Source of the DNA: Terriglobia bacterium
GTDB taxonomy: Bacteria; Acidobacteriota; Terriglobia; 20CM-2-55-15
Direction: 5' to 3'
Assembly (NCBI GenBank): GCA_965198225.1
Contig: CBDAOY010000009.1
Span: 1,120,001-1,184,000, forward strand
DNA length: 64,000 nucleotides
This document shows, in pieces, positions 12,888 to 27,425 of this stretch (its first letter is position 1; each line of letters opens with the position of its first letter). The translations under genes were made by a program, and so were the position numbers. The notes beneath the pieces were generated by a model. The model did no database searches. It worked only from the letters and a program-made list of their open reading frames with translations, and had not been told where the DNA came from.

Positions 12888-13189
12888 GGCGTGCTCCACG
12901 ATGCGGGCCCGACGTCCTGTTCGAACCAAATCTTGTTGAAAACGAGATCTATCCTACACCAATCGGTTACTGCTAGCCGTTTCCGAACTAGAGTCGGTTC
13001 CTACTCGGGACCCTTAAGCGAACTAAGAAGCCCTCGCGCTTGCGATTCGGCTCATGAGGGCCCCGTCGACTGTCCAGTCCGAATGCTGCTCCTCGAGCTG
13101 GTCATTGTATTCTCGCGTTATTGATCCCATCCTGAGCTATTCGACATATCTTGGCAGCGATGTCGGAGATGAAGGCTGAAATCCCATGT

Positions 13190-13224: not shown

Positions 13225-15515
13225 TCAGGGGTTGGGAACGGCGATTAGTTTTTGAGTATTGGAGCCGCCGGCCGGGAACTTCATGCCGTCGATGTGAATG
13301 AGCTTCTGCGGCGTGCTGTTGAAGTCGCCCCATACCCAGAGCGTGCCGTCCTTGTCGGCCGCCATCCGCCCGTACGCGCCGGATCCGATCGAGACTATCG
13401 GCGGCAGACCGTTCACCCGGACCGGGACGCTGCTGTCGAGGCAGTTGACAAAGACCTGGCAGCCATCGCCGAGTTGACCGTAGCCGTTGTAGCCCCACGC
13501 CCACACCGTGCCATCCGACGTGAGCGCCATGCTGCCCGTTGCTGCGGCAGCCACCTCGACGACGTCGATTAGCCCCAGCACCGGGGCGGGTTCGAAAGCG
13601 CTCGGACAGTTGGCGCTGAGATCGCAGCCATCCCCCAGCTGGCCGTTGCTGTTGTAGCCCCACGCCCAGACGGTTCCGTCATCCTTGACCGCGAGGACGT
13701 GGGCGTCGCCGCCGGCAAAATTGATGACCTCCTTCATGTTTGTCTGTTGCGGGGTCTTGTAAAGAGCGGGTGGGCTGCCGTTACCGAGCTGACCGGAGTA
13801 GTTGCTGCCCCACCCCCAAAGGGTGCCGTCGCTGGTCTGGGCCAGGCTGTACTCGGAGCCGGCGCCGAGCGCGACAACATCGCTGATCTCGACCAGGATT
13901 GGCAGATTCCTGTCGATGGTGGTGTTGTCACCGAGCTGACCGTAAAAGTTCTCGCCCCAGGCGTAGACGAGCCTCTGAGTCCCCTGGGTCGTCAGGGCCA
14001 GACTGTGAAACGGCCCTGCAGCAACCGCCAGGGCATTGCCTAGGAAGCCCTTACCGAGGCGTACCTGGACCGGAAACGGACTGGCGGGGTTCTGGTCGAA
14101 GGTGCTCCCGCCGTCGCCCAGCTGGCCCTTGGTATTGAATCCCCATGCCCAGACCCGCCCGGTTGGCGCAACCGCCAGGTTGAACTGGTTGCCGGCCGCC
14201 ATGCTCACGATCCAGGTGGGACCGTCCACCGGCCCCGGCGTGTCCCGACCGTGGAATGTTCCGTCGCCGATCCCGCCCGGTCCCCACGTCCACATCGTCC
14301 ACGGTACTTTCGAAAAGAGGCTGTACCCAGCCCCGGCGGCAACTGTTGTCACTCCCTCCAGGCCCTGAACCTCAAGGGGTTCGCGGTGAATCCACGGAAA
14401 CAGCGTCGGCATGCCGAACTGCCCCTGGGCGTTGCTGCCCCACGCCCAGATCGTGCCTTCGGTCTGAGTCGCCAGGCTGTGGTTGGCGCCCGCGCTGATC
14501 CTGGCGACGTCGGTGAGGGGGACCTGGCCGGGGTTCGGCTCGTTGTTGGGGGCGGTCGTCCGTCCGAGCTGGCCCTGGACATTGCGGCCCCATGACCATG
14601 CCGTACCATCCGACTTGAGTGCCTGCTGTGGTCCCGTCCCGCCGCGAGGCTGACGACCTTCTGAGGTAGCGGCCCCAGAGAGACTGGCACCGGGGTGTTC
14701 TTGTCGCCGAAGCTCCCATTGCCGAGTTGTCCACGCTTGTTGCGGCCCCAGGCAAAGACGTTGCCATCCGCATCGCGCGCCAGGCTGTGCCAGCCCCCGG
14801 CAGCGATTCCCGTTATCGCGCTCACGCCTTGCACCAGGAAGGGCACGGATTTCTGGATCCAGGTGCCGTCTCCGAGCTGGCCGAACTTGTTGTTTCCCCA
14901 GGCGAAGAGGGCGCCGCTCGCGTGGGCGGCCAGGCTGTGGCTGCCGCCGGCCGCGATTGCCCGGACTCCCTGGAGAAGGGTCCAGAAGTACTTGACGTAC
15001 TGCGGTCGGCTCCGGGACGTTATCGTGAAGTCTCCGAGCTGACCGGACGAGTTGTCCCCCCACGCCAGGACGTAGCCCGTGGATGTCAGGGCCATGCTGT
15101 GTTTGTCACCGGCCGCGACAGCGATCACATCGCTCAAAGGCTGGCCGTATCGGGTCACCGGCGCGGGAACGTAGCCGTTGTAACAATAAGAGTTCTGCTC
15201 CAGGCACTCGTCGCCGAGCTGGCCCTTGTCGTTCCTACCCCATGCGTAGACGGTTCCGTTCTTCATCAAGGCCAGGCTGTGACCGCCACCGGTCGTGATG
15301 GCCGCAACCTCGGTCAGATTGAGCACCTGCACCGGCACGGTGCTGTCCTGGTTGGACCCGTTGCCGAGCTGGCCCGAACCGTTTTCTCCGGAAGCCACGA
15401 CCGTACCGGGCACCTGGGCGATCCCCGGCCCGGCGGCGAACATAACCAGCAACGAGCATCCGATCAGGCAGCGGGCCTCAAATACCGTTGAAACTCTTTT
15501 CCACATCTTTGTCAT
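13225..15515 (-). CDS. secreted RCC1/BLIP-II repeat beta-propeller protein with a 1-nt frameshift near 14623
   Basis: SD AGGAGG and signal peptide; many 'AAGxxHSLAL..dGtVwaWGxNxxGQLG' repeats in ORFs 14349-15578 and 13225-15063, joined at AAGRDHS/ALKSDGTAWSWG. Confidence 0.85.
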
Positions 15516-15618
15516 CCTTCCTCCTTGATCTGTCACCATCCTAGGAAGGGGTCGCGAGGGCGAACATCGCATGTTCATGCGGTTTTTTCGACTCCGGCCC
15601 GAATTTTTCGGGACAAAT

Positions 15619-16271: not shown

Positions 16272-17348
16272 CTATCTACCCCTCGGCTCTTCATCCGGCA
16301 ACGTACCGGTCGGATCTTCCAAATGGAGCCGGCTCAAGACGGCTTTCTGGACGTGGAGGCGGTTTTCTGCGTTCTCGAGGACGGCTGAGCGGGGACCGTC
16401 GAGGACGGCGTCGGTCACGACGAGGTTGCGGCGCACCGGAAGGCAATGCATGAAGTGGGCGTTCGCGGTTTGGTTCATAAGGGCCTCGTCGACGATCCAA
16501 TCCGAATGCCGCCCGCGCAGGTTCCGTTCTTCTTCCGGGGCGTCGTATCGGGACAGTGCCCCCCAGGACTTGGCGTACACGATGGCGGCACCTCGCGCGG
16601 CACTCTCCTGGTCGTTCGAGATTCGAACGGTCCCGTTCGCCCGGCGGGCGAGCTCCTGTGCCCGGTCGATCACCATGTCGGTCAGCTCGAAACCGCGTGG
16701 GTGTGCCAGCGTCACCTCCATCCCCATGCTTGCGGTGGCCAGCAGCAACGAGTTGGTCACGGCCATCGGCAGCGGCCTTGGGTGTGGGGCCCACGTGATC
16801 GTGATCCGTCGTCCGGCGTGCCCACCCAGTAGCTCCTGGATCGTCAGCAGATCGGCCAGCGCCTGGCATGGGTGGTACATGGCGGATTCCATGTTGAACA
16901 CCGGCACGCGGGCGTGTCTCATGAAAGCAGTGAAGAGAGTGTCGCCGATGTCATCGTCGAAAGAGGCCCCGCGCGCCAGCGTACGTAGACCGATGCCACT
17001 GTAGAACCGAGACAGGACACCGACGGCTTCTTTGACGTGTTCGGCTTCGTCCCCGTCCATTCGCGTCCCGTCGCGGGTCTCCAGGCCGTAGATCATCCCC
17101 GGCTCCAGCGTTGTCACACCGGCCCCCATCTGGCGCAAGGCCACCTCGAAGGAGCAGCGGGTCCGCAGGGACGGGTTCTGGAACCACAGGACGAACTGCC
17201 GGCCCTCAAGTTCGTCGGACACGGGTTGGCGTTTGTACCGCGCCGCAGCGGCGAGAAGCTCGCGAGTTTCTTCGATCCCGATGTCGGCCAGGTTGTAGAA
17301 ATGCCGCATCGTCGATTCGTGGGCCCTGTTGCGTGCGATGGCCTTCAT
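16272..17348 (-). CDS. argF': N-acyl-ornithine carbamoyltransferase (ArgF', AOTCase/SOTCase type)
   Basis: NPSLRT, MDGDEAEH, HPCQALAD, TWAPHPRPLP, YAKSWG, MHCLPVRRN; ATG 17348 coupled to the argD stop (alternative start 17309). Confidence 0.9.
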   Translation of the reverse strand: MKAIARNRAHESTMRHFYNLADIGIEETRELLAAAARYKRQPVSDELEGRQFVLWFQNPSLRTRCSFEVALRQMGAGVTTLEPGMIYGLETRDGTRMDGDEAEHVKEAVGVLSRFYSGIGLRTLARGASFDDDIGDTLFTAFMRHARVPVFNMESAMYHPCQALADLLTIQELLGGHAGRRITITWAPHPRPLPMAVTNSLLLATASMGMEVTLAHPRGFELTDMVIDRAQELARRANGTVRISNDQESAARGAAIVYAKSWGALSRYDAPEEERNLRGRHSDWIVDEALMNQTANAHFMHCLPVRRNLVVTDAVLDGPRSAVLENAENRLHVQKAVLSRLHLEDPTGTLPDEEPRGR

Positions 17349-18541
17349 CTCAGAACACGCCGGAAGGTTTCGAGAAAAGCGTCCCATTCATCCGCCCCAA
17401 GGGTCAGCGGCGGCAACAGCCGGATGGTATTGGGCTCGGCGCAGGTGCCGACCAGCACCCCTTCCTGGAGCAAACGAGCCTGCAGCTCTTTGGCGTCCGT
17501 TCGGCACTCGACGCCGAGCAGGTAACCCAGACCGCGCACCTCCGAGACTCCGCCGACCAGGCTTTCCAGGACAGACCGCGCCTGGGCTGAGCACCTCACG
17601 ACCTGATCGATGAGGCCTTCTTCTTCGATGATGCGGTAAGTTGCGCGTATCGCCGCGGCGGCCAGTGGATTGCCCCCGAACGTCGTTGCGTGATCCCCGG
17701 GTTCGACCGTTGCCGCGAATGCCTCGTTGACGATCACGGCTCCCGCGGGAAAGCCGCCGGCCACTCCCTTCGCGGTCGTCACGATGTCGGGCTCGACCCC
17801 CCAGTGCGAGCCGGCGAACCACTTTCCGGTCCGTCCGTTGCCCGTCTGGACTTCGTCGAAGATCAGGCAGATGCCCTGGCGGGTGCAATAGTCCCGCAGA
17901 CCGCGGTAGTAGTTCGCATCGGCTGCGTAGACGCCGGCGACGCTCTGGATGGGTTCGACGATCACCGCCGCGACGCGCTCGGGATCCGGCAATTCGAACA
18001 CCGCGGGGTCGCCCATCTTGAAAAAGCGCGTCCAACCGTCCAGATTCTGTGGGAACTTATCCCGCAGCACCGGGAACCCGGAGACGCTCAGGGTGCCGAT
18101 CGTCCGACCGTGGAAGCCGCCGGACATGGAGACCACATCGCTCCTGCCGGTCGCCTTTCGAGCGATCTTTAACGCCGTTTCGCCGGCCTCGGATCCGGAG
18201 CCGCAGAAGAAGGCCGCTCGCATGCCCGGGTAGCTGTTCTCGACCAGCAGCGCGGCGGCCTCGCCGCGGACCGACGAGTAGACGGCGTTCGAGTAGAAGA
18301 CCAGTTCCCCGATCTGCTGCCGCATCTCTTCCACCCAGCGTGGATGACAGTGGCCGATCGAGCACACGGCGTGTCCCGCATAGAGGTCCAGGTACGCGTT
18401 ACCCTCGTCGTCGTAGACATAGCTGCCCTTACCACGGACGATCGACAGGGGTAGACGTATGTTCCGGTAGGTCGGCAGCGTGTAAGTGTCTTCGACCTCG
18501 CGTGACGTCCGACCTTCGATGTTGGAAGCGGATCCTGTCAT
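17345..18541 (-). CDS. argD: acetylornithine/succinylornithine aminotransferase (class III PLP)
   Basis: FHGRT, IFDEVQTGNGRTG, TTAKGVAGG, TTFGGNPLA; arg operon context. Confidence 0.9.
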   Translation of the reverse strand: MTGSASNIEGRTSREVEDTYTLPTYRNIRLPLSIVRGKGSYVYDDEGNAYLDLYAGHAVCSIGHCHPRWVEEMRQQIGELVFYSNAVYSSVRGEAAALLVENSYPGMRAAFFCGSGSEAGETALKIARKATGRSDVVSMSGGFHGRTIGTLSVSGFPVLRDKFPQNLDGWTRFFKMGDPAVFELPDPERVAAVIVEPIQSVAGVYAADANYYRGLRDYCTRQGICLIFDEVQTGNGRTGKWFAGSHWGVEPDIVTTAKGVAGGFPAGAVIVNEAFAATVEPGDHATTFGGNPLAAAAIRATYRIIEEEGLIDQVVRCSAQARSVLESLVGGVSEVRGLGYLLGVECRTDAKELQARLLQEGVLVGTCAEPNTIRLLPPLTLGADEWDAFLETFRRVLR

Positions 18542-18572
18542 AGGCTTCAGCGTGCTCGGTCCGTGGCCTGGT

Positions 18573-19646
18573 CTATACGAAGACACCCGGATACCGGAGC
18601 CCGGCGGTTTCATCCCATCCGAGGGCACAGTTGAGGTTCTGAATCGCCTGACCCGCAGCGCCTTTCCCTAGGTTGTCGATCGCGACGAAGGCGACGGCGC
18701 CACGTCCTGATGCGCCGTCGACGCCGACCACGGCCCGCGGCGTGCCCAGCACCCACCTCAGCTCCGGGGAACCGTCGACGACATCGACGAGTACTTCGTC
18801 GCCGTAGGTCCGGTCGTACAGCTGCCGAATCACCGATTCGTCCATGCCCGGAAGAAAGACCGTCACGAGAATACCCCGCGGAAGGGGAGCCGACTGCGGT
18901 ACGAACTGAAGCTGGAAGTCGTTATCCGTCTGGGTGTTCAGGAACCACTCCACCTCGAGCAGATGCTGGTGTGTGAGCGGCTTGTAGGCGCGCAGGTTGT
19001 TGACCCTTTCGGGATGATGGGTGGTGGGCACGGGCTGCCGGCCCGACCCCGACGAACCCGTGATACCGGTCAGGCACACCGGACCCGACAGCCAGCCTTC
19101 CCGCGCCAGCGGAGTGAGTGCCAGCAGGATGCCGGTCGCAAAACATCCCGGATTGGCGATGAGCCGGGCTTTCCGCAACCGCTCCCGTTCGAACTCGGTC
19201 AGCCCGTACACGAAACTCTCGAGAAGGTCCGCTGCGGCATGGGCCCGCCCGTAGTAGCTTTCGTAACCCCGGGCGTCGGGCGTGCGGAAATCGCCGGCCA
19301 GGTCCACCCATATCGTGTCGGGATAGGCGTCGACGAGCCCCGGCAGGACCTCCTGAGATTCATGATGCGGAAGGCTCAGGAAGACGATGCCGACCTCATC
19401 GAGCCGCTCGGCAGCCTCTTTCGATGTGATGAACGTCTGGTCGACGAACCCCCGCAAGTTGGGGAAGACCTCGGCGACTGGTTTGCCGGCGTCGCGGTTT
19501 GCGGTCGCCCAGCCGAGGACAAGCCCGGGGTGGACGGACAAGTAACGCATGAGCTCACCGCCGCCGTACCCGGAGGCGCCCAGGATCCCCACAGCACGTC
19601 TATGTGCGATCGGATCCGGCACACCGGTCGGGTTGCGATCGGCCAC
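18573..19646 (-). CDS. argC: N-acetyl-gamma-glutamyl-phosphate reductase
   Basis: GILGASGYGGGEL, IANPGCFAT, TGSSGSG, IDNLGKGAAGQAIQN; start approximate (GTG 19646). Confidence 0.93.
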   Translation of the reverse strand: MADRNPTGVPDPIAHRRAVGILGASGYGGGELMRYLSVHPGLVLGWATANRDAGKPVAEVFPNLRGFVDQTFITSKEAAERLDEVGIVFLSLPHHESQEVLPGLVDAYPDTIWVDLAGDFRTPDARGYESYYGRAHAAADLLESFVYGLTEFERERLRKARLIANPGCFATGILLALTPLAREGWLSGPVCLTGITGSSGSGRQPVPTTHHPERVNNLRAYKPLTHQHLLEVEWFLNTQTDNDFQLQFVPQSAPLPRGILVTVFLPGMDESVIRQLYDRTYGDEVLVDVVDGSPELRWVLGTPRAVVGVDGASGRGAVAFVAIDNLGKGAAGQAIQNLNCALGWDETAGLRYPGVFV

Positions 19647-19674
19647 GGGGGATCCTGCTTCCGGGCCGGGATGG

Positions 19675-20730
19675 CTATGAAACCCGGCGCGCATTGGTGT
19701 TGAGGAGGCTGCGGACCACTTCCCCAAGGCGGGCCGGATAGCGACACGCGTTGACGGCGGGCCGGTTGAACTGCGCTTCCAGGTACTCTACGCCGACCAG
19801 GCTGTCGGTCACCGGGCCGGAGAACAGGTCGATGTGGATGCCGTGGTCCGAGAGATACCGATGGCCGCCCCATGCACCGGCCAGGTCGCTGGCGCAGAAC
19901 AGGTGCAGGCGCATCGCCCGGCGAATCACGGGGTCCTTCAGCAGATCCAGAACGCCGTAGTCACCGATCACTCCGTCCCCCAGCTCCACAACGATCAGGT
20001 CCGGGGAGTATGAGGCAAGATGGGTAACGAGGGTTCCGGCGATGTCGGCGCGAGCGGCCTGATCAAGCCCGGCCGTCGACGGGTACCCGGCATCCAGGAA
20101 CGATGCCGTTCCGATGGCTCCGTGGCCTTTCATGGCGATCAGGTCTCTCAAACAAGCGACCCCGGTCAGTTTCGCGGCCGCCACGCGGAAGCCCGCTCCC
20201 GACAACTCGCGAACCAACTCCGTAACCAGCCGTGTCTTTCCACTCTCCATGGACGTGCCGGACACGACAACCAGGGGCGGCATCCGGAGACCATCGCTGT
20301 CGAGGGCTGGCCCGACCCGGGCGTCCTGAAGATTAGGGATCCTGGCGTGAATGAATGGCATGCCGATCACTTCACAGGCGAGGGGGGAGCCCAGTTGCTG
20401 GTGCTCCCTCGCCCGGGCGCCGACGACGCCACCCCGGTTCAGAATCGCCAGGACGTCGCCGACGCTGACTCTCTGGGGTACTTCGCCGTCGAAGCCCCTC
20501 AGCGCCCGCCGGCAGCCGAGTGCGCCGACGACGACGTCGCCCTCCAGGATGCGCACCAGGTTTCCGTTCGAAAGCTCCAGCTCCTCCGACCTCGAACGCT
20601 GTCCGAGTACCCGGACCACGATGGGGTTGCCCGTCCGGGCTTCGAGGTGAGTCGTGATCGGGAGCTCGGATCCCAGGTTCAGGCGATGAACCACCGAGGC
20701 GATCTTGTCAACCTGCACGGTTTGCAGCAT
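19675..20730 (-). CDS. uncharacterised DUF1611-like P-loop protein inside the arg operon
   Basis: Walker-A-like VVSGTSMESGKT, AAAKLTGVAC, IVVELGDG; overlaps the argG stop. Confidence 0.7.
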   Translation of the reverse strand: MLQTVQVDKIASVVHRLNLGSELPITTHLEARTGNPIVVRVLGQRSRSEELELSNGNLVRILEGDVVVGALGCRRALRGFDGEVPQRVSVGDVLAILNRGGVVGARAREHQQLGSPLACEVIGMPFIHARIPNLQDARVGPALDSDGLRMPPLVVVSGTSMESGKTRLVTELVRELSGAGFRVAAAKLTGVACLRDLIAMKGHGAIGTASFLDAGYPSTAGLDQAARADIAGTLVTHLASYSPDLIVVELGDGVIGDYGVLDLLKDPVIRRAMRLHLFCASDLAGAWGGHRYLSDHGIHIDLFSGPVTDSLVGVEYLEAQFNRPAVNACRYPARLGEVVRSLLNTNARRVS

Positions 20731-21946
20731 TTAGGCCTTGCTCCTTGAGATCGCGATCCTCGACGCCGCGGTGAAGCCGTGACGGCACCGCGGCAATGGT
20801 GCTGTACCCTCTCGCGTCTTGCCCGCTCCAGAGGGTCGGCATCTCACCGTAGATACCGCTCTCGGCTCCGACCAGGGTATTGGGGCTGCGGACTCCCGTG
20901 ATCCCAAAGTGTCTGTGGGTCATCGACACGCGGGCCTCACCCGAAACCCGTTCCTGCGACCGGTCGATCAGGGCTTCGATGTCGCCCAGGGCGGGCTCGA
21001 ACGCGAGGCCCTCGTGGAGCATCTTTCCGTAGAACTCCCCGAGGTGATCCTTCCAGAACCGCTGCCACGATGTCGTTGTGATTTTCTCCAGCTCCCGGTG
21101 GGCATGGATGAGCACGAGTGCGGCCCCCGCTTCGAAGGCGATACGTCCCTTGATGCCCAGGACGGTGTCTCCGATGTGAATGCCCAGGCCGACCCGGTGC
21201 CGGCGGCAGAGGGTTCCCAGGGTCGTGATCAGTTCAGGGCCGTTGTATTCGGTGCCGTCGAGCGTCACCGGAACCCCGTGATCGAACCCGATCACGGTCT
21301 CTTCGCCGTCGACGCTTCCACCGTTTCCGGCGGCGTGCTCATAGACGTGATCGGGAATGGCCTCCCAGGGATCGTGGGTTTCGCCGCCGCCGATCGTGCT
21401 GCCCCAGAGGCCGGCGTTGATCGAATAGCGCCGCGATGAGGCCTGGATTTCGACGCCGTGATCCCGGAGATAGGCATACTCCTCATCCCGGCTCAGTTTC
21501 TGATCGCGCACGGGCGTGATGATTTCCAGTTGCGGGCACAGCACGTGGAAAGCGACGTCGAAACGTACCTGGTCGTTGCCTGCGCCAGTCGAGCCGTGGG
21601 CCACCGCGTCAGCCCGCGCCTCGAGGGCATGTTCGGCGACGACTCGGGCCTGCACGACGCGTTCGGCGGCGACCGCCAGGGGATACACCTGGCCGCGCAG
21701 GATGTTGCCTTTGATCAGGTAGCTGATATAGCGGTCGAAGACCTCCTGCCGCGCGTCCACGGTATGGTGGGACGCCACCCCGAGCGCCATCGATCGTTCC
21801 TCCAGCCCGAGGAGCTCTTCTTTCTCGAAGCCACCCGTATCGACCGTGACCGTCACAACGTCGAAACCACGTTCGATGAGGTTCAGGATGCAGTAGGAGG
21901 TGTCGAGCCCTCCCGAATACGCGAGAACGACCTTCTTGCTGGACAT
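20708..21946 (-). CDS. argG: argininosuccinate synthase
   Basis: VVLAYSGGLDTS, AHGSTGAGNDQVRF, GIKGRIAFE. Confidence 0.96.
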   Translation of the reverse strand: MSSKKVVLAYSGGLDTSYCILNLIERGFDVVTVTVDTGGFEKEELLGLEERSMALGVASHHTVDARQEVFDRYISYLIKGNILRGQVYPLAVAAERVVQARVVAEHALEARADAVAHGSTGAGNDQVRFDVAFHVLCPQLEIITPVRDQKLSRDEEYAYLRDHGVEIQASSRRYSINAGLWGSTIGGGETHDPWEAIPDHVYEHAAGNGGSVDGEETVIGFDHGVPVTLDGTEYNGPELITTLGTLCRRHRVGLGIHIGDTVLGIKGRIAFEAGAALVLIHAHRELEKITTTSWQRFWKDHLGEFYGKMLHEGLAFEPALGDIEALIDRSQERVSGEARVSMTHRHFGITGVRSPNTLVGAESGIYGEMPTLWSGQDARGYSTIAAVPSRLHRGVEDRDLKEQGLNAANRAG

Positions 21947-21957
21947 GGGTACCTCTC

Positions 21958-23382
21958 TTACCCTTCGGAAGTGGTCGCGGGCACCGCGGCCGATAGCATC
22001 TTTTCCTCGCGCAGCCGCTTTGTGATGTCGCGAAGACGCACGATCTCGGCCCGGACGCGGCGCGGCGCGGTACCTCCCACGACGTCTTTGTTCTCCAGGG
22101 CCGCGGTGACAGACAGCGCATCAAATAGATCGACGTCGAATGCTCGATGGATCGCCCGATACTCCTCGATGGACAGGCTCGCTAGAGATGTTCCCCGGCT
22201 CTGGGCCGTCCGGACCGCCTCGGCGCTCCGCTCATGTGCCTGGCGAAACGGCACTCCCTTGCGGGTCAAGTAGTCGGCCACGCTGATCGCGTCGATGTGC
22301 CCACCTTCCAGTGCCGCGGTTGCGCTCCGGCGGTTCACGACAAGAGTCCCGACGATAGTATCGAACACCGGTATGATCAGGTTCACGGTATCGGCCGCGT
22401 CGAAGGTCCCTTCCTTGTCTTCCTGAAGATCCTTGTTGTAAGAGAGCGGCAAGCCTTTCAGCGTGGTCACGAGCGCGACCAGGTGCCCGAGCGTGCGTCC
22501 GCACTTGGCACGCCCCAGCTCGCAGGCGTCGGGGTTCTTCTTCTGCGGCAGCATGGAACTGCCCGAGGCCACAGATTCGTCCAGCTCGACGAATCCGAAC
22601 TCGCTCGAAGACCACAGGATGAGATCCTCGCCCAGGCGCGACACGTGGACCAGAAACAGGACGCAGGCATGCAGGAAGTCGCACGCAAAGTCTCTGTCAC
22701 TGACCGCATCCAGCGAATTGTGAGTCATCCGCGCGAAACCGAGACGCCGCTGGAGATCGTCCCGGTCGATGCCAAACTGATTGCCGGCGCACGCCCCCGA
22801 TCCCAGTGGGCACGAGTCCGCTTGATCGGCCGCCCAGGTGAATCGTCCGTGGTCGCGCAGAAACATCTCCGCGTAGGCGAGCAGGTGATGGGCAAACAGG
22901 ACCGGCTGTCCGCGCTGGAGGTGTGTGTAGGCCGGAATCACGACGTCGAAGTTGAGTTCGGCTTGATCGACGAGGGCGTCGATCAGCGACAGGAGGTCGC
23001 GCGCGATTCCCTCCGACTGGTCCCGCAGGTGGAGGCGCAGGTCCGTCGCGACCTGGTCATTGCGGCTGCGGCCGGTGTGGAGCCTCGCCGCAGGTTCACC
23101 CACCAGCTCCGTCAGACGGCCTTCGATGTTCATGTGGATGTCTTCCAGTTCTTCGGAAAACACGAACTGCCCGGACTCTATCTCCAGTTGGACCTGTTCG
23201 AGGCCCTCGCCGATCCTCCGGCTGTCCTCGTCGGAGATGAGGCCGCTCCGGCACAGTGCGTCGTTCCAGGCGCGACTGGATTCGATGTCCTCCTGGAAGA
23301 GCCGTCGGTCAAAACCGATGCTCGCGTTCAGGCTCCGAAACGAGGCGTCCATGGGTTTGGAGAAACGCGCGCTTCGCTTCAC
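21958..23382 (-). CDS. argH: argininosuccinate lyase
   Basis: LHTGRSRNDQVATD, YTHLQRGQP, GSSMLPQKKNPD, YNKDLQEDK; GTGA overlap with argB. Confidence 0.97.
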   Translation of the reverse strand: MKRSARFSKPMDASFRSLNASIGFDRRLFQEDIESSRAWNDALCRSGLISDEDSRRIGEGLEQVQLEIESGQFVFSEELEDIHMNIEGRLTELVGEPAARLHTGRSRNDQVATDLRLHLRDQSEGIARDLLSLIDALVDQAELNFDVVIPAYTHLQRGQPVLFAHHLLAYAEMFLRDHGRFTWAADQADSCPLGSGACAGNQFGIDRDDLQRRLGFARMTHNSLDAVSDRDFACDFLHACVLFLVHVSRLGEDLILWSSSEFGFVELDESVASGSSMLPQKKNPDACELGRAKCGRTLGHLVALVTTLKGLPLSYNKDLQEDKEGTFDAADTVNLIIPVFDTIVGTLVVNRRSATAALEGGHIDAISVADYLTRKGVPFRQAHERSAEAVRTAQSRGTSLASLSIEEYRAIHRAFDVDLFDALSVTAALENKDVVGGTAPRRVRAEIVRLRDITKRLREEKMLSAAVPATTSEG

Positions 23383-24290
23383 AGCGACCCCTCGAGGACG
23401 GAGACGGGCCTGCCCGACACGGGCAGAACGAGCGTGCCCTGGCTGCCCGGTTCACACGCTTCCCGCAGCAGGGCGTGTGGCGACTGGCCGTCGATGAGGT
23501 GAGCACTCCGGGTTCCACCCTCCAGGGCCCGGACCATGGTAGTCAACTTGGGGATCATGCCGCCGCGCACGACTCCCGCTTCGATCAGCGCCTGGATGGC
23601 ATCGAGCGTGACTTCCGCGATCCGGCTGTTGCGGTCCTCGCGATCACGGAGGATTCCCGGGACGTCGGAGAGGACCAGCAGTTTGTCGGCCCTCAGGCTG
23701 ATGGCGATCTCCGACGCGACCGTATCGGCGTTGATGTTGAAGACGTTTCCATCGAGATCCGCACCAAGCGGGGAAATCACCGGAACGAATTGACGATCCA
23801 AGAGGTGTCCGAGTAGCTCCCGGTCCACCCTGCGAACGTCGCCGACGTTCTGGAAGTCGACCAGTTCGCGTTCGCCGCTCTCTCGATCGATCATCCAGCG
23901 AGGCGGACGGCGCGTCGCGTCGATCAGGTTTCCGTCCACGCCCGACAGGCCTACGCCGGGCACACCCTGTCGACGGAGCGCAGCGACGAGGTCAGTGGAA
24001 ATTCGGCCGGCGAACACCATCTTTGCGAGCTCCAGCGTCTCGGTGTCGGTGACCCTCCGGCCGTTCACTGTTGTGCTTCCGATGCCCAGGCGATCCGCCC
24101 ACCCCTCCAACTGCGGTCCTCCGCCGTGGACGATGACAAGGCTGATGCCTGCGTCACGAAGCAGGGAGATGTCCGAAGCGAACCCCTCGATGACCGGCGC
24201 ATCCTTGAGCAGTTCGCCACCGATCTTGACCACAAACTGGCTGTCTCTGTAGATGCGCAGATCCTCGAATGACAGAACGCCCGCGTTCAT
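23379..24290 (-). CDS. argB: acetylglutamate kinase
   Basis: VVKIGG, VHGGGPQ, GRRVTD, NINAD, GGMIPK; no fused GNAT domain. Confidence 0.95.
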   Translation of the reverse strand: MNAGVLSFEDLRIYRDSQFVVKIGGELLKDAPVIEGFASDISLLRDAGISLVIVHGGGPQLEGWADRLGIGSTTVNGRRVTDTETLELAKMVFAGRISTDLVAALRRQGVPGVGLSGVDGNLIDATRRPPRWMIDRESGERELVDFQNVGDVRRVDRELLGHLLDRQFVPVISPLGADLDGNVFNINADTVASEIAISLRADKLLVLSDVPGILRDREDRNSRIAEVTLDAIQALIEAGVVRGGMIPKLTTMVRALEGGTRSAHLIDGQSPHALLREACEPGSQGTLVLPVSGRPVSVLEGSL

Positions 24291-24308
24291 GGACGGCCCT
24301 CGGTTATA

Positions 24309-24346
24309 TGTGAATATATATGCATATAGAAGCATAAGTATGCATT
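24309..24346. promoter_or_regulatory. tandem ARG boxes (ArgR operator) in the divergent argB/argR region
   Basis: TGAATATATATGCA (24311-24324) and AGCATAAGTATGCA (24331-24344), 20-bp period; AT-rich island in GC-rich DNA. Confidence 0.8.
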
Positions 24347-24366
24347 CATTTGGGGTCTCGCGTCAA
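24337..24366 (-). promoter_or_regulatory. putative argB operon promoter
   Basis: Minus strand TTGACG(24366-24361)-N18-CATACT(24342-24337); the -10 overlaps ARG box 2. Confidence 0.55.
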
Positions 24367-24373
24367 CCCTCCT

Positions 24374-24382
24374 TGTTATAAT
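24374..24382 (+). promoter_or_regulatory. extended -10 promoter of argR
   Basis: TGnTATAAT 12 nt upstream of the argR ATG. Confidence 0.55.
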
Positions 24383-24394
24383 TCCAGCGACACG

Positions 24395-24841
24395 ATGAGC
24401 ATCAAGAGACTGCGCCACAACGCGATTGTCGAGCTGGTCAAGGCCGGGAGTGTGGAGAGTCAGGAAGGACTCGCACGTGAGCTGCGCCGAATGGGCATGA
24501 ACGTGTCGCAGTCGACCCTTTCGCGGGACATCCGCGAGCTGGGCCTCGCGAAATCCGGTCGCGTCTACACGGTGACTCCGACGAACACCCGGGGCGGATC
24601 CAACCCCACGCTGCGGAGGATCCTCGATGAGTTTCTCCTTCAGGTGGACTCGGTGCAGCAAACACTCGTCCTGAAGACCCGGCCAGGCAATGCGGCAACC
24701 GTGGCTCAGGCAATCGACGACGCCGAGTGGCCCGAAATCGCCGGTACAATAGCCGGAGAAGACACCATCTTCGCGTTATGCCGTTCGAAGGGTGACGTCG
24801 GGCGCCTGCAGGAGAGGATCAGGAAGCTTCTGACCCAATAG
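24395..24841 (+). CDS. argR: arginine repressor
   Basis: SQSTLSRDIRELG wHTH, LKTRPGNA, AGTIAGEDTIF. Confidence 0.96.
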   Translation: MSIKRLRHNAIVELVKAGSVESQEGLARELRRMGMNVSQSTLSRDIRELGLAKSGRVYTVTPTNTRGGSNPTLRRILDEFLLQVDSVQQTLVLKTRPGNAATVAQAIDDAEWPEIAGTIAGEDTIFALCRSKGDVGRLQERIRKLLTQ

Positions 24842-25040: not shown

Positions 25041-25202
25041 CGTCCCTTGCTATCCAAAGCTTTATCGAGTGTCACAACCCATGTAAGATATTCTTTCTAA
25101 ACCGCGAAGAATCGCTGAAAGCGAACGGGTCCCGGGACCGCTGAGGGCGTATTGCCCGCCTCGGCTCGGAGTTTTTCGCGTGATTCAACACTCGAGGTGG
25201 CG

Positions 25203-27425
25203 ATGGTCGGATTATCTGTTGGATTCGTTTCTCAAAAGCGTGCGCTGTCTCTCCTGATTCTTTTCTGCGTTCTCGTCCCAGGAGCTGCTGCCGACGATTG
25301 GACGGAACTACGCGGCCCGAACCGCGACGGCGTTTCGGCAGAGAGTGGCCTGCCCGACAGCTGGTCTCTGGACGGCGACAACCTACTCTGGCGTGTCCCA
25401 TACGGAGGACTTTCCGGCCCGGTTGTCCTCGGCGATCGGGTCTACCTGCAGAACTCGGTCGGCGAGGGCGCCACGATTCAGGAGCGCGTCCTCTCCTTCG
25501 ACGCCGACAGCGGGGAACTGCTCTGGGAACAGCGCCTCAACATCACACACAGCGACGCGCCCTCACACCGGGCCGGCTGGGCGACGCCCGGGCTGGATGC
25601 GGAAACCGGCAACGTTTACATCATCACGGCCGACGCGACGCTCGCCGCTTACTCCCGGGAAGGCGATCCGGTTTGGCGGCGCCAGCTGACTGAAGAGTTC
25701 GGTTTCCTGACCACGCACGGCGGGCGGGTCACATCGCCGATGGTCGACGGCGATTTCGTGATCGTCGCGGGCATCACCTTCAACTGGGGCGAGTTTGCGG
25801 GCGGCGGCCAGCGGTTCATGACGTTCGACAAGCGGACCGGCGAAACCGTCTGGGTCAGCTCGCCGGGCCAGCGACCGTACGACACGACCTATTCGCCCCC
25901 GATGATTACCGAAATCGACGGAGTGCGCCTGATCGTGGCCGGGGGCAGCGATGGAGCCTGGTATGCGATCCGCGCGTCGACCGGCGAGCGTGTCTGGCGG
26001 TATGCCGTGTCCAAACGCGGCCTCAACACGGGTGCGATCCGCGTTGGCGACAACCTGATCCTCTCCCACAGCGAGGAAAACCTTGAGACCAGCACGATGG
26101 GTTTCCGGGCGTCTCTCGACCTCAGGAGCGCGGGTGAGGTCACCGACAGCGACACCAACTGGCTGCATCGGGGCTTTCTCGCCGGCTATGCCTCGCCGGT
26201 TACCGATGGCGAGCGGATCTACCAGGTCGACAACGGGGCGATGCTCGGAGCTTTCGATATCGACACAGGCGAAGAACTGTGGTCGCTGAAGCTCGGGACG
26301 ATCCAGAAAGCCGCCCTTGTGTATGCCGACGGCAAGCTCTACGTCGGGACGGCGAACAGCAAGTTCTACATCCTGCGGCCCGGTCCCGATGGATGCGAGA
26401 TCCTGAGCGAGGTCGAGGTCGGAAACCCGGACAACCCCGAACAGGTTACCGCCGGCGCGGCTGTTTCGAACGGCCGCGTGTATTTCTCGACCGCACAGGC
26501 CCTCTACGCGATCGGCAGCCCCGATAGTCAGGCGCCCACTTGGACGCCTCATGCACCGGCCAGGGCGACAACCACGGCGGGAGCGCCCGCGACGATGCTG
26601 GTCGTCCCTGGTGATGTCACGGTGTCGCCGGGCGAGAGCGTCGACTTCCATGTCCGTCTCTTCGATGCGAAGGGCAACTACGCCGGTGAGAGCGAAGCCG
26701 AATGGTCGCTCGATAGCCTGGGCGGTGCGATCTCTCCCGACGGTACCTACACGGCTCTGGACGAAGCACAGGGTTTTGCGGGCAAGGTCCGGGCCACCGC
26801 CGGCGGCATCAGCGGCGAGGCTCGCGTTCGGGTCATCCCGCCCCTGGACTGGGGTACCAATTTCGACGATTTTGACGTCGGAGGATTGCCGGCCTGGTGG
26901 CTGAACACGCGGCTCAAGTACTCCGTGACGGAGCTCGATGGCAATAAGGTGTTCACGAAGCGCGCCGACAACCCGTTCTCTTTCATCCGACGCGCCCGCA
27001 CGTACGGGGGGCAGCACACCGCGTCCAACTACACGACCGAGGCGGAATTGAGGTTTGCCATGAGGCGCCGAACCATGGGCGACGGCGGAATCGTCGCCCA
27101 GGGTTACCAGCTCGTGATCTTCGGAAACCACCAGCGCCTCGAGCTCCATTCGTGGCAGCCCGAGACCGAGCGCACGGTAACGGCTCCGATGAGGATCGAC
27201 GCCGATACCTGGTACCACATGAAACTGGAGGTCCAGACTCTGTCCGACGGATCGGTACGGGCTCGCGGCAAGGCGTGGCCAAACAGCGAGTCGGAGCCGG
27301 CGGACTGGACCCTGGAACGCATCGATCCGCCCGGCTTGGGTATTCTTACTGGGGCGCCGGGTCTCTACGGCGACGGCCGCAACGAAATCTACTTCGACAA
27401 TTTCAAGGTAACTCCCAGCCGATGA
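25203..27425 (+). CDS. exported PQQ-like beta-propeller with C-terminal Ig-like and lectin-like (ConA-type) domains
   Basis: Signal peptide then DWTELRGPNRDG; repeated 'D..TGE.lW' blades; tail ending GAPGLYG...IYFDNFKV. Confidence 0.8.
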   Translation: MVGLSVGFVSQKRALSLLILFCVLVPGAAADDWTELRGPNRDGVSAESGLPDSWSLDGDNLLWRVPYGGLSGPVVLGDRVYLQNSVGEGATIQERVLSFDADSGELLWEQRLNITHSDAPSHRAGWATPGLDAETGNVYIITADATLAAYSREGDPVWRRQLTEEFGFLTTHGGRVTSPMVDGDFVIVAGITFNWGEFAGGGQRFMTFDKRTGETVWVSSPGQRPYDTTYSPPMITEIDGVRLIVAGGSDGAWYAIRASTGERVWRYAVSKRGLNTGAIRVGDNLILSHSEENLETSTMGFRASLDLRSAGEVTDSDTNWLHRGFLAGYASPVTDGERIYQVDNGAMLGAFDIDTGEELWSLKLGTIQKAALVYADGKLYVGTANSKFYILRPGPDGCEILSEVEVGNPDNPEQVTAGAAVSNGRVYFSTAQALYAIGSPDSQAPTWTPHAPARATTTAGAPATMLVVPGDVTVSPGESVDFHVRLFDAKGNYAGESEAEWSLDSLGGAISPDGTYTALDEAQGFAGKVRATAGGISGEARVRVIPPLDWGTNFDDFDVGGLPAWWLNTRLKYSVTELDGNKVFTKRADNPFSFIRRARTYGGQHTASNYTTEAELRFAMRRRTMGDGGIVAQGYQLVIFGNHQRLELHSWQPETERTVTAPMRIDADTWYHMKLEVQTLSDGSVRARGKAWPNSESEPADWTLERIDPPGLGILTGAPGLYGDGRNEIYFDNFKVTPSR

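Follow-up and report, generated by a model that had tools for sequence, protein, structure and literature searches.

Gene X lies within an arginine operon of the order argB-argH-argG-X-argC-argD-argF' in the 64,000-nucleotide stretch of DNA analysed here (the window). In the ORF list of the window it is a conserved ORF of 351 aa between argG and argC; all operon genes are on the minus strand and a divergent argR adjoins (Table 1). X overlaps argG by 23 nt (20708-20730). The operon neighbours were named by Pfam and NCBIfam models, and Pfam detects no GNAT domain in any of the operon genes, while X itself has no match to a GNAT, NAT or ArgJ domain in Pfam and NCBIfam. An earlier, sequence-only reading had described this gene order, the overlap, the unfused ArgB, the lack of argA, argJ and GNAT genes in the operon and the motifs GTSMESGKT, AKLTG and VELGDG in the translation of X, all of which we recover.

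The same reading placed tandem ARG boxes in front of the operon. One of them holds: the palindrome between argR and argB has a single mismatch to TNTGAATWWWWATTCANW, which we take to be the E. coli consensus, and is the only site with ≤3 mismatches to it in the 64-kb window (both strands counted, 0.68 matches are expected, and 2 are reached in 21 of 100 shuffles). The neighbouring AT-rich stretch (24333-24350) has 6 mismatches by hand count and drops out. The PF01316 match in argR is the sole Arg_repressor match in the genome. Judging from sequence inspection and from the TIGR00761 match, which begins at residue 34, the true start of argB is probably the ATG at 24290.

Table 1. Features of the arginine operon, of X and of ArgF' (positions in the window).
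Feature	Positions	Strand	Evidence or remark
argR	24350-24841	+	ORF, divergent from the arg operon; PF01316 Arg_repressor, 54.3 bits at 24404-24553
ARG-box-like palindrome	24309-24326		between argR and argB; 1 mismatch to consensus
argB, N-acylglutamate kinase	23379-24335	-	TIGR00761, 229.9 bits (cut-off 151.3); AA_kinase domain only, unfused
argH	21958-23382	-	TIGR00838, 541.9 bits
argG	20708-21946	-	TIGR00032, 284.8 bits (cut-off 268.2)
X, predicted N-succinyl-L-glutamate-forming enzyme	19675-20730	-	351 aa
X N-terminal all-beta domain, about residues 1-140	20311-20730	-	predicted model
X C-terminal SIMIBI-type P-loop domain, residues 147-346	19693-20292	-	VIA-align
X Walker A GTSMESGKT, residues 158-166	20233-20259	-	G164, K165, T166 family-invariant
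X Lys187 codon (AKLTG)	20170-20172	-	invariant; coordinates computed from ORF start
argC	18573-19727	-	TIGR01850, 328.9 bits
argD	17345-18628	-	PF00202, 337.8 bits; TIGR00707, 366.3 bits, under its cut-off of 410
argF', N-acylornithine carbamoyltransferase, predicted succinyl-specific	16272-17387	-	NF003384, 398.7 bits (cut-off 288)
ArgF' Ala115 codon	17043-17045	-	at the Xanthomonas Glu92 position, acetyl/succinyl specificity switch

The absence of the usual first enzyme extends beyond the operon. ArgJ is not found in the whole genome of the window (97% complete, 9 contigs), and the ArgA models match nothing in it except ArgB itself. Pfam detects no deacylase gene within the operon, and ArgE/DapE-type deacylase candidates are encoded outside it (e.g. 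TIGR01910, 223.5 bits at a cut-off of 217.6). With ArgJ and ArgA absent and deacylase candidates present, the synthase is thus the step left without another candidate. X was also considered as the acylcitrulline deacylase and rejected: it occurs without argF', its fold is not that of a hydrolase, and M20 candidates exist.

X is not a chance ORF, since its relatives are numerous (at least 533 at E ≤ 0.001; 1842 among representatives, including 465 at E ≤ 1e-30) and its AlphaFold model is confident (mean pLDDT 91). The N-terminal domain, folded alone, reaches a pLDDT of 87.7 and matches no solved fold (best VIA-align Z 3.4, none reaching 5; best Foldseek E 0.45); its invariant residues include G72-x-R74-R75-A76 and N98-x-G100-G101. 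The closest structures to the C-terminal domain in VIA-align include TM0796 (2g0t, Z 16.5), dethiobiotin synthetase (1a82, 16.3), 2obn (15.8), CTP synthase (15.7), DgcN (7xrj, 15.0), and formyl-THF synthetase (14.6), with HypB, UreG, ApbC/Cfd1, and MinD-type proteins as further neighbours (Z 13-16). FtsY, HypB, and dethiobiotin synthetase are among the Foldseek matches listed for X, and 7xrj is not; a sequence search against the PDB gives chance-level matches only. Besides the P-loop residues, the family keeps K187 of AKLTG (186-190) and E249 and D252 of VELGDG (248-253) invariant.

In 80 loci from Acidobacteriota and Planctomycetota, the gene immediately upstream of X is argG in 75 (72/74 with room) and the one immediately downstream is argC in 70 (67/73 with room). 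One X locus (L077) belongs to the cultured Pyrinomonas methylaliphatogenes K22. In these loci 57 ArgF' adjoin X; argF' is missing from 17 of 83 X-bearing genomes. All five genomes of this kind that were fetched show the order X-argC-argD-argB. The constant partner of X is thus the acyl-glutamate block rather than argF'. Conversely, one genome (G140) has argF' without X and carries a fused NAGS/K (AA_kinase and NAT) instead.

X and ArgJ exclude each other. Among 301 genomes of Acidobacteriota, the phylum of the window, that are ≥90% complete, 190 encode ArgB. This group divides into 81 genomes with X, 89 with ArgJ, and 20 with neither; none carries both. The corresponding Fisher p of 5.6e-16 is overstated because related genomes are not independent. 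Both states occur in each of four families (f1, f29, f33, and f50), in separate genera, and ArgJ is likewise absent from 4/4 acidobacterial and 5/5 planctomycete X-bearing genomes reached via their loci. ArgA was profiled in the genome of the window and five others.

A further link to ArgB is provided by P0165, a metagenomic protein of 626 aa in which an X-like domain (38% identity) appears to be fused to an ArgB/ArgA-type kinase domain; it is the sole sequence of its cluster and occurs on 4 contigs. Its architecture mirrors that of NAGS/K and ArgA in that the X-like domain is joined to an AA_kinase domain, which may point to arginine sensing, or to channelling with ArgB, in certain lineages. 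In metagenome contigs, 100 pattern matches to the P0165 locus yielded 0 confirmed cases, and a word-index search, which is weak evidence, found no longer fused relatives of X. The predicted complex of X and ArgB scores 0.00 against a mark of 0.32 and speaks neither for nor against binding.

The argG-X-argC synteny, the exclusion of ArgJ, the X-argC-argD-argB operons, and the X-like/kinase fusion lead us to propose, at a probability of roughly three in four, that X supplies N-acyl-glutamate for ArgB, whatever the acyl donor. The role assigned to X by the sequence-only reading is thereby strengthened. Known enzymes for this step are ArgA, bifunctional ArgJ, NAGS/K, short GNAT forms, Cg3035, and Cabys_1732/BT3761, the last being a probable Bacteroides N-succinylglutamate synthase according to GapMind 2020 (PMC7311316). 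While the pathway step would be the same, the fold class of X, P-loop NTPase-like, is unrelated to theirs.

The role is already in print, which runs against the description of X as a candidate new enzyme. GapMind 2026 (bioRxiv 2024-2026; PLoS Genet 2026;22:e1012372, PMC13759103) predicts it, on largely similar grounds, for A0A127FCT3-like proteins, marking the enzyme in its Table 1 as not confirmed experimentally. It describes a hypothetical protein inside argB/C/D/F'/G/H/R clusters that never occurs with the usual synthase, reports a Foldseek match of a family member to 7XRJ (e-value 1.4e-7), and notes that the ArgF' next to it has a residue other than Glu at position 92. X shares each of these properties, namely the arg cluster, the lack of the usual synthase, the weak similarity to 7XRJ, and a non-Glu92 ArgF'. 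By these shared properties, X and A0A127FCT3 very probably belong to one family; ESM Atlas neighbours of X in Pseudomonadota support this membership. Since the role has been published, the window contributes a member and not a concept. What is added here beyond that prediction is the exclusion of ArgJ, the argF'-less X-argC-argD-argB operons, and the X-like/kinase fusion, as well as the paralogue tier, the unmatched N-domain, and the motif evidence against a DgcN-like site described below.

Two readings would remove X from synthesis proper. X might be a non-acylating SIMIBI accessory NTPase, that is, a HypB/UreG-like metallochaperone or an assembly or regulatory factor, with the synthase encoded elsewhere. 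Its HypB, UreG, ApbC/Cfd1, and MinD-type fold neighbours are compatible with this, the genome encodes many GNATs, and three genomes of genus g93 (G207, G310, and G326; 98% complete) retain (argR)-argC-argD-argF'-argB without X. Searches of g93 for ArgJ, NAT domains, ArgA, and X at E ≤ 1, and with Pfam on the flanking ORFs, found no replacement synthase. Consequently, another unrecognised synthase exists in the phylum and could be present here too. A chaperone, however, is hard to square with strict exclusion of ArgJ or with the exclusion of ArgA homologues published in GapMind 2026 (PMC13759103), nor would it be expected to be fused, as an X-like domain is, to an ArgB/ArgA-type domain; moreover, the invariant Gly, Arg, and Asn of the N-domain are typical of a substrate pocket. 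We consider an accessory role improbable.

X might instead work as an ArgJ-like transacylase, with N-succinylcitrulline or N-succinylornithine as succinyl donor and glutamate as acceptor, so that the acyl group is recycled and no deacylase is needed. The exclusion specifically with ArgJ (0/190 with both) fits this equally well, as does an operon without a deacylase gene, and according to GapMind 2026 (PMC13759103) no ArgE can be recognised in Steroidobacter either. The paper also mentions argE candidates beside some homologues, and ArgE/DapE-family candidates are present in the genome studied here. Further, such a cycle still requires a primer synthase, a nucleotide-binding P-loop with intact Walker A is unexpected for a cofactor-free transacylase, and X heads the acyl-glutamate block in the X-argC-argD-argB operons. 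Transacylation thus appears very improbable, and we return to X as a synthase.

The acyl group that X would transfer can be approached through ArgF'. Its alignment (MDGDEAEHV in the query against MDGDT[E/A/S/V]EHI) places Ala115 at the position of Glu92 in the Xanthomonas enzyme, and its best solved relative is 3l02, the E92A mutant of that enzyme. As cited in GapMind 2026 (PMC13759103), Shi et al. 2007 found that E92A, E92P, E92S, and E92V switch the enzyme to succinylornithine. In the 57 ArgF' that adjoin X, this position is occupied by T (47), A (5), S (4), or V (1) and never by E; the predominant Thr (47/57) lies outside the four substitutions of Shi et al. Judged from the sequence, Ala at this position points to succinyl intermediates in the pathway of the window, and of the two options previously left side by side, N-acetyl and N-succinyl, the latter is favoured.

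The gene, operon, distribution, fold, and motifs are findings of this analysis; the substrate, product, acyl donor, and catalytic steps that we infer for X are the following. X would acylate L-glutamate at its alpha-amino group, most likely with succinyl, and the product would feed ArgB, ArgC, ArgD, and the succinyl-type ArgF', after which an ArgE/DapE-type deacylase encoded elsewhere would free citrulline. For the chemistry we tentatively favour, at somewhat less than an even chance, an ATP-dependent succinate-glutamate ligase modelled on dethiobiotin synthetase (BioD). The G-K-T P-loop and Lys187 would pass the gamma-phosphate of ATP to succinate, the resulting succinyl-phosphate would be attacked by the amine of glutamate, and the N-terminal beta-domain would serve as the pocket in which substrates bind.

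This proposal builds on the comparison with BioD (1A82, 3FGN). The fold match extends over 179 residues (Z 16.3), and X shares with BioD the GKT P-loop in its canonical form, another Lys that follows strand 2, and an acidic E-x-G-x-G strand end, elements that are catalytic in BioD and would be so in X. The BioD catalytic motif set is represented in X by the invariant K165, T166, K187, and E249, and in the alignment K187 pairs with the 'CKPVQTG' Lys of the M. tuberculosis enzyme (3fgn). BioD is also the top PDB sequence-profile match for X (3fgn, E 0.78) and the best PDB profile match after FtsY for the X paralogues (E 5.5e-4). Moreover, dethiobiotin synthetase, CTP synthase, and formyl-THF synthetase, all among the closest folds, are ATP-dependent SIMIBI C-N ligases. 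In contrast, PF13500 matches 1 of 30 X family members, under threshold (E 0.2), and X differs from BioD by its additional 140-residue N-domain and by its location in an arg and not a bio operon. Against a ligase stands TM0796, a DUF1611 protein, as the nominally top fold match, together with the reaction of DgcN, which is alike on D-glutamate.

The sequence-only reading had called X DUF1611-like and linked it to DgcN, which is reportedly a D-glutamate N-acetyltransferase. Along these lines, X would be a succinyl-CoA:L-glutamate N-succinyltransferase whose P-loop holds the phosphates of CoA. DgcN is likewise a two-domain protein of about 340 aa that N-acylates glutamate, as proposed for X, although it works in D-Glu catabolism and X would act in L-arginine biosynthesis. 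The C-terminal P-loop of X superposes on the DUF1611 structures 7XRJ, 2G0T, and 2OBN (Z 15-16.5), so that the structural half of the suggested comparison with DgcN yields a common fold. The HMM half does not: PF07755 (DUF1611_C) gives no match to X even at E ≤ 10 and detects X in 0/9 genomes of X-bearing relatives. It does produce weak, sub-threshold matches in 13 of 30 relatives (best E 9.5e-4) and exceeds its cut-off in a single distant paralogue (26.2 bits), which speaks for the link. An hhalign comparison with canonical DUF1611, represented by a shallow alignment of 5 rows, returns 13% probability (E 0.0022) over 84 columns that cover the P-loop only. Profiles of X and of its paralogue reach dethiobiotin synthetase and FtsY but none of 2g0t, 2obn, and 7xrj at E ≤ 10. 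Four genomes (G061, G121, G133, and G156) carry X as well as canonical DUF1611 genes.

The two families also differ outside the shared fold. DUF1611 proteins combine PF07755 with a separate N-terminal domain, presumably alpha/beta and, by its Pfam description, Rossmann-like, whereas the N-domain of X is all-beta in the predicted model; no DUF1611 structure is among the matches listed for this domain, though an unlisted family may yet match it. The motifs GKT, AKLTG, and ELGDG of X correspond to GK[MR]xT, ATGQTG, and EGQG in DUF1611 including 7xrj. X retains the Thr that follows the P-loop Lys and binds Mg, as well as Lys187, and DgcN has lost both. The tie to DUF1611 and DgcN is therefore weak, a shared SIMIBI P-loop fold at most, and dethiobiotin synthetase is just as good a match for it. 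All comparative data behind the role of X fit a succinyl-CoA-dependent enzyme no less than a ligase, and GapMind 2026 (PMC13759103), with its Foldseek match to 7XRJ, implies such an enzyme; we regard it as possible but rather unlikely. The ATP-dependent ligase is left open because the DgcN link is weak and X keeps a canonical Walker A together with a BioD-like Lys. A donor other than ATP and succinate or succinyl-CoA is hardly to be expected.

Genome-based metabolic reconstructions of Acidobacteriota, Planctomycetota, and other groups persistently leave the first step of arginine synthesis unfilled. In the sample studied, 81 of 190 acidobacterial genomes with ArgB would rely on the X family for this step, and if the family were ignored they would be wrongly scored as arginine auxotrophs. 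The analogy drawn so far between the family and DgcN is a weak one. Should the ligase chemistry prove right, X would bring a new kind of enzyme to a textbook pathway step; the pathway would run without acyl-CoA and the succinate released by the deacylase would be directly reusable.

The gene X, which the sequence-only reading had placed between argG and argC, is present on the minus strand of the window and encodes 351 residues, with the three motifs quoted for it at positions 158–166 (GTSMESGKT), 186–190 (AKLTG), and 248–253 (VELGDG) of the translation. Pfam and NCBIfam matches bear out the minus-strand order argB-argH-argG-X-argC-argD-argF'. As claimed, ArgB consists of the amino-acid-kinase domain alone, a GNAT domain occurs in none of the operon genes, and X overlaps argG, by 23 nt. 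The operon had also been described as lying behind tandem ARG boxes, which is only half borne out: one palindrome is the sole site in the 64-kb window at ≤3 mismatches to the consensus, but the adjoining AT-rich stretch matches badly, a hand count giving 6 mismatches. Among the flanking genes, overlapping ORFs of 612 and 409 residues, both with strong RCC1-repeat/β-propeller matches, may represent either a single gene with a frameshift or two neighboring genes whose starts are set wrongly. A 978-residue ORF has a sub-threshold patatin match only (24.8 bits, cut-off 27.7), and a 757-residue PQQ/BamB-like β-propeller protein is encoded on the argR side.

Positions of features in the window and at loci of other genomes
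Feature	Position	Orientation	Remark
X	window 19675-20730	minus	
argR	window 24350-24841	divergent from arg operon	ORF
ARG-box-like palindrome	window 24309-24326		between argR and argB; 1 mismatch to consensus
RCC1-repeat ORFs	window 13225-15578	minus	just downstream of arg operon
ORF with patatin match	window 9993-12929	minus	
PQQ/BamB-like gene	window 25152-27425	plus	
Split X	G320:C4:86371-87415		two adjacent pieces (residues 148-345 and 2-126)
Xanthomonas-style cluster (L105)	G140:C82:1-12000		argF'-argG-(155-aa ORF)-M20 peptidase-fused AA_kinase+NAT-argD-argC
X-less loci of genus g93	L101-L103 (G326, G207, G310)		X missing between argR (or MlaD) and argC
X-bearing locus of genus g93	L104 (G145)		compared with L101-L103
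Paralogues of X	L096:9502-10515; L097:9440-10672; L098:9556-10824; L099:9582-10640; L100:9408-10475		

In the genome that contains the window (97% complete, 9 contigs), model searches found neither ArgJ nor a NAT domain, and the sole match of the ArgA model was ArgB itself, below cut-off. M20-peptidase matches number 25, one of which passes an ArgE/DapE subfamily cut-off (TIGR01910, 223.5 versus 217.6 bits). Thus, the deacylation step has candidates, while X is the only one for the synthase step. We put the probability that X forms N-acylglutamate, probably N-succinylglutamate, at about 0.75; this predicted function is well supported by operon synteny and by the exclusion of ArgJ.

When one genome of each species was scanned for loci, 580 of the 590 stretches that matched were confirmed, and the best 80 of these at least 580 loci, from Acidobacteriota (Blastocatellia, Pyrinomonadaceae, Chloracidobacterium, Terriglobia, and Thermoanaerobaculia) and Planctomycetota, were used. 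The homologs at these loci are linked to arg genes: argG is the immediate upstream neighbor of X at 75 of them (72 of 74 with enough sequence), argC follows X immediately at 70 (67 of 73), and all six other arg genes are present at 33. The placement of the genes around this argG-X-argC core, argB for instance, varies by lineage, and the linkage is therefore maintained rather than merely inherited.

The phylogenetic profile covered 301 acidobacterial genomes of ≥90% completeness, including three flagged as unpublished (G061, G084, and G181). The genome of the window is itself acidobacterial: a phylum sample centered on Pyrinomonas methylaliphatogenes K22 consisted of the same genomes as the one centered on the window. 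X occurs in 83, as 80 full-length orthologs (E < 1e-87) and three truncated or split copies, and ArgJ in 89; instead of co-occurring freely, the two exclude each other strictly, with no genome of the 301 encoding both. ArgB is encoded in 190 genomes, which by hand cross-tabulation divide into 81 with X, 89 with ArgJ, and 20 with neither, in agreement with the computed tally. Three genomes with neither X nor ArgJ (G012, G020, and G036) also lack ArgB. Both states are seen within four families (f1, f29, f33, and f50), always in different genera. The Fisher p-value of 5.6e-16 overstates the case, since it ignores relatedness. ArgJ was likewise not found in the four acidobacterial and five planctomycete X-bearing genomes reached via the loci, whose completeness is not given. 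One X copy (in G320) is split, and ArgB has no match at E ≤ 1e-30 in that genome, which may reflect a decaying arginine pathway.

Among the 71 of the 301 genomes with argF' over cut-off, 66 encode X and five do not; 17 X-bearing genomes are without argF'. All five of these 17 that were fetched carry an X-argC-argD-argB operon; X thus follows the acyl-glutamate block rather than argF'. Of the five argF' genomes without X, three belong to genus g93 (see below). In G140 the arg cluster is of the Xanthomonas style and encodes an M20 peptidase together with a fused AA_kinase+NAT synthase/kinase, and X may merely be unassembled in G210, because its contig starts inside argC. At least three first-step solutions, namely X, ArgJ, and NAGS/K, consequently coexist in the phylum.

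The strongest observation against an indispensable role of X comes from genus g93. Six sampled genomes have the order argR-X-argC-argD-argF'-argB, whereas exactly this gene is lacking from the otherwise identical operon of G207, G310, and G326 (98% complete). Searches of these three genomes for ArgJ, for ArgA over cut-off, for a NAT domain, and for an X-like match at E ≤ 1 all came up empty. Either an unrecognized synthase makes acyl-glutamate there, or they must be auxotrophs with an otherwise intact operon.

The acyl group can be approached through ArgF'. The window enzyme has Ala in place of Glu92 of the Xanthomonas acetylornithine enzyme (MDGDEAEHV versus MDGDTEEHI), and among solved structures it is closest to the E92A mutant 3l02. 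Glu is absent at this position from all 57 ArgF' sequences encoded beside X (T 47, A 5, S 4, V 1). Exchange of Glu92 for Ala, Pro, Ser, or Val is reported to switch the enzyme to N-succinylornithine (Shi et al, 2007, cited in bioRxiv 10.1101/2024.10.14.618325); Thr is none of the four residues tried there. Succinyl intermediates are therefore likely in the window pathway, judging from this residue.

X had been put forward as a candidate new glutamate N-acyltransferase, but a synthase role is already predicted in print for a Steroidobacter protein (GapMind 2026; bioRxiv 10.1101/2024.10.14.618325, version 2026-07-02; PLoS Genet 22:e1012372). The grounds given there are conserved arg-cluster context, non-co-occurrence with ArgA homologs, ArgF' residue 92, and a weak resemblance to DgcN in Foldseek (7XRJ; e-value 1.4e-7, rmsd 5.6 Å); Table 1 gives the enzyme as unconfirmed by experiment. 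From the matching properties we infer that X belongs to the same family, which is supported by ESM Atlas neighbors of X in Pseudomonadota, one auto-named "DUF1611 domain-containing protein". Searches of other literature on a missing synthase in these phyla turned up known types only (ArgA, ArgJ, ArgO, S-NAGS, Cg3035, and Cabys_1732/BT3761).

The link to DgcN and DUF1611 is weak, and the DUF1611-like label did not withstand profile comparison. PF07755 does not match X even at E ≤ 10, detects X in none of nine X-bearing relatives, and gives sub-threshold matches in 13 of 30 relatives. Canonical DUF1611 genes occur in 28 of 151 genomes of the phylum, alongside X in four (G061, G121, G133, and G156). 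A five-member canonical alignment matches 2obn, 2g0t, and DgcN (7xrj) at E 1e-64 to 1e-72; against it the X profile reaches an hhalign probability of 13%, over 84 columns around the P-loop only. Neither the X nor the paralog profile matches DUF1611 structures at E ≤ 10; their matches are to FtsY (2e-5) and, at 5.5e-4 for the paralogs and 0.78 for X, to dethiobiotin synthetase. In the Foldseek listing, X is paired with FtsY, HypB, and dethiobiotin synthetase. The C-terminal domain (residues 147–346) resembles TM0796 (Z 16.5), dethiobiotin synthetase (16.3), ApbC (16.1), 2obn (15.8), CTP synthase (15.7), and DgcN (15.0), a spread that counts as a tie by the rule of the comparison tool. The N-terminal 140 residues, confidently predicted to be all-β (pLDDT 88 folded alone), have no fold match (best Z 3.4, best Foldseek E 0.45).

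The family invariants include a canonical Walker A (G164-K165-T166), Lys187, and E249-x-G-D252-G. In alignment, Lys187 falls on the Lys of CKPVQTG from the M. tuberculosis dethiobiotin synthetase. Canonical DUF1611 proteins, DgcN among them, have ATGQTG without Lys. They also read G-K-[M/R]-x-T, without the Thr or Ser after the P-loop Lys that normally binds Mg and that X keeps. GKT together with a second Lys marks enzymes that transfer a phosphoryl group to an oxygen of the substrate, as in dethiobiotin synthetase and CTP synthase. X should be labeled a two-domain SIMIBI P-loop protein with a dethiobiotin-synthetase-like site. On this motif pair we tentatively rank ATP-dependent ligation, in which X would join succinate to glutamate, slightly above transfer from succinyl-CoA, neither being likelier than not. 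That X is an accessory NTPase seems improbable, and a transacylase even more so.

X is a real, conserved gene. At least 533 relatives were found among the candidates scored, and 1842 cluster representatives match at E ≤ 0.001 (465 at E ≤ 1e-30); the 30-sequence alignment has 52 invariant columns, and the AlphaFold model reaches a mean pLDDT of 91 and a pTM of 0.89. None of the 120 relatives listed has an informative name or a precomputed Pfam domain, all being "hypothetical protein" or nameless. One full-length member (P0173, a 348-residue cluster representative, 262.7 bits to the X profile) is labeled by NCBI as from a Candidatus Aenigmatarchaeota MAG and could be archaeal or a binning artifact. 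A 626-residue metagenomic protein (P0165), its exact sequence on four contigs and named "acetylglutamate kinase" by one source, joins an X-like N-terminal part (38% identity to X over residues 51–310) to an amino-acid-kinase domain that scores best against argB (127 bits, below the cut-off of 151) and the kinase-like domain of ArgA. Its glycine motif, K-I-A-D compared with K-x-G-G in ArgB, suggests in the light of ArgB enzymology that this domain may be regulatory rather than catalytic, as in ArgA; we treat the apparent fusion as a lead only.

Hits at E 1e-33 to 1e-50 form a second tier that shares the two-domain architecture of X (hhalign probability 100%, E 5e-79, 339 columns); one member, at 26.2 bits, exceeds the PF07755 cut-off. 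None of the five fetched loci has arg genes beside the paralog, and ArgJ is also present in three of nine genomes of this tier. The arg-linked orthologs are therefore one branch of a wider uncharacterized family. Neighbors of the paralogs include M28/TFR-dimer (glutamate-carboxypeptidase-II-like) peptidases, an M20 peptidase, and ATP-grasp enzymes, and the paralogs may act on a different amino acid or peptide, by N-acylation or ligation.
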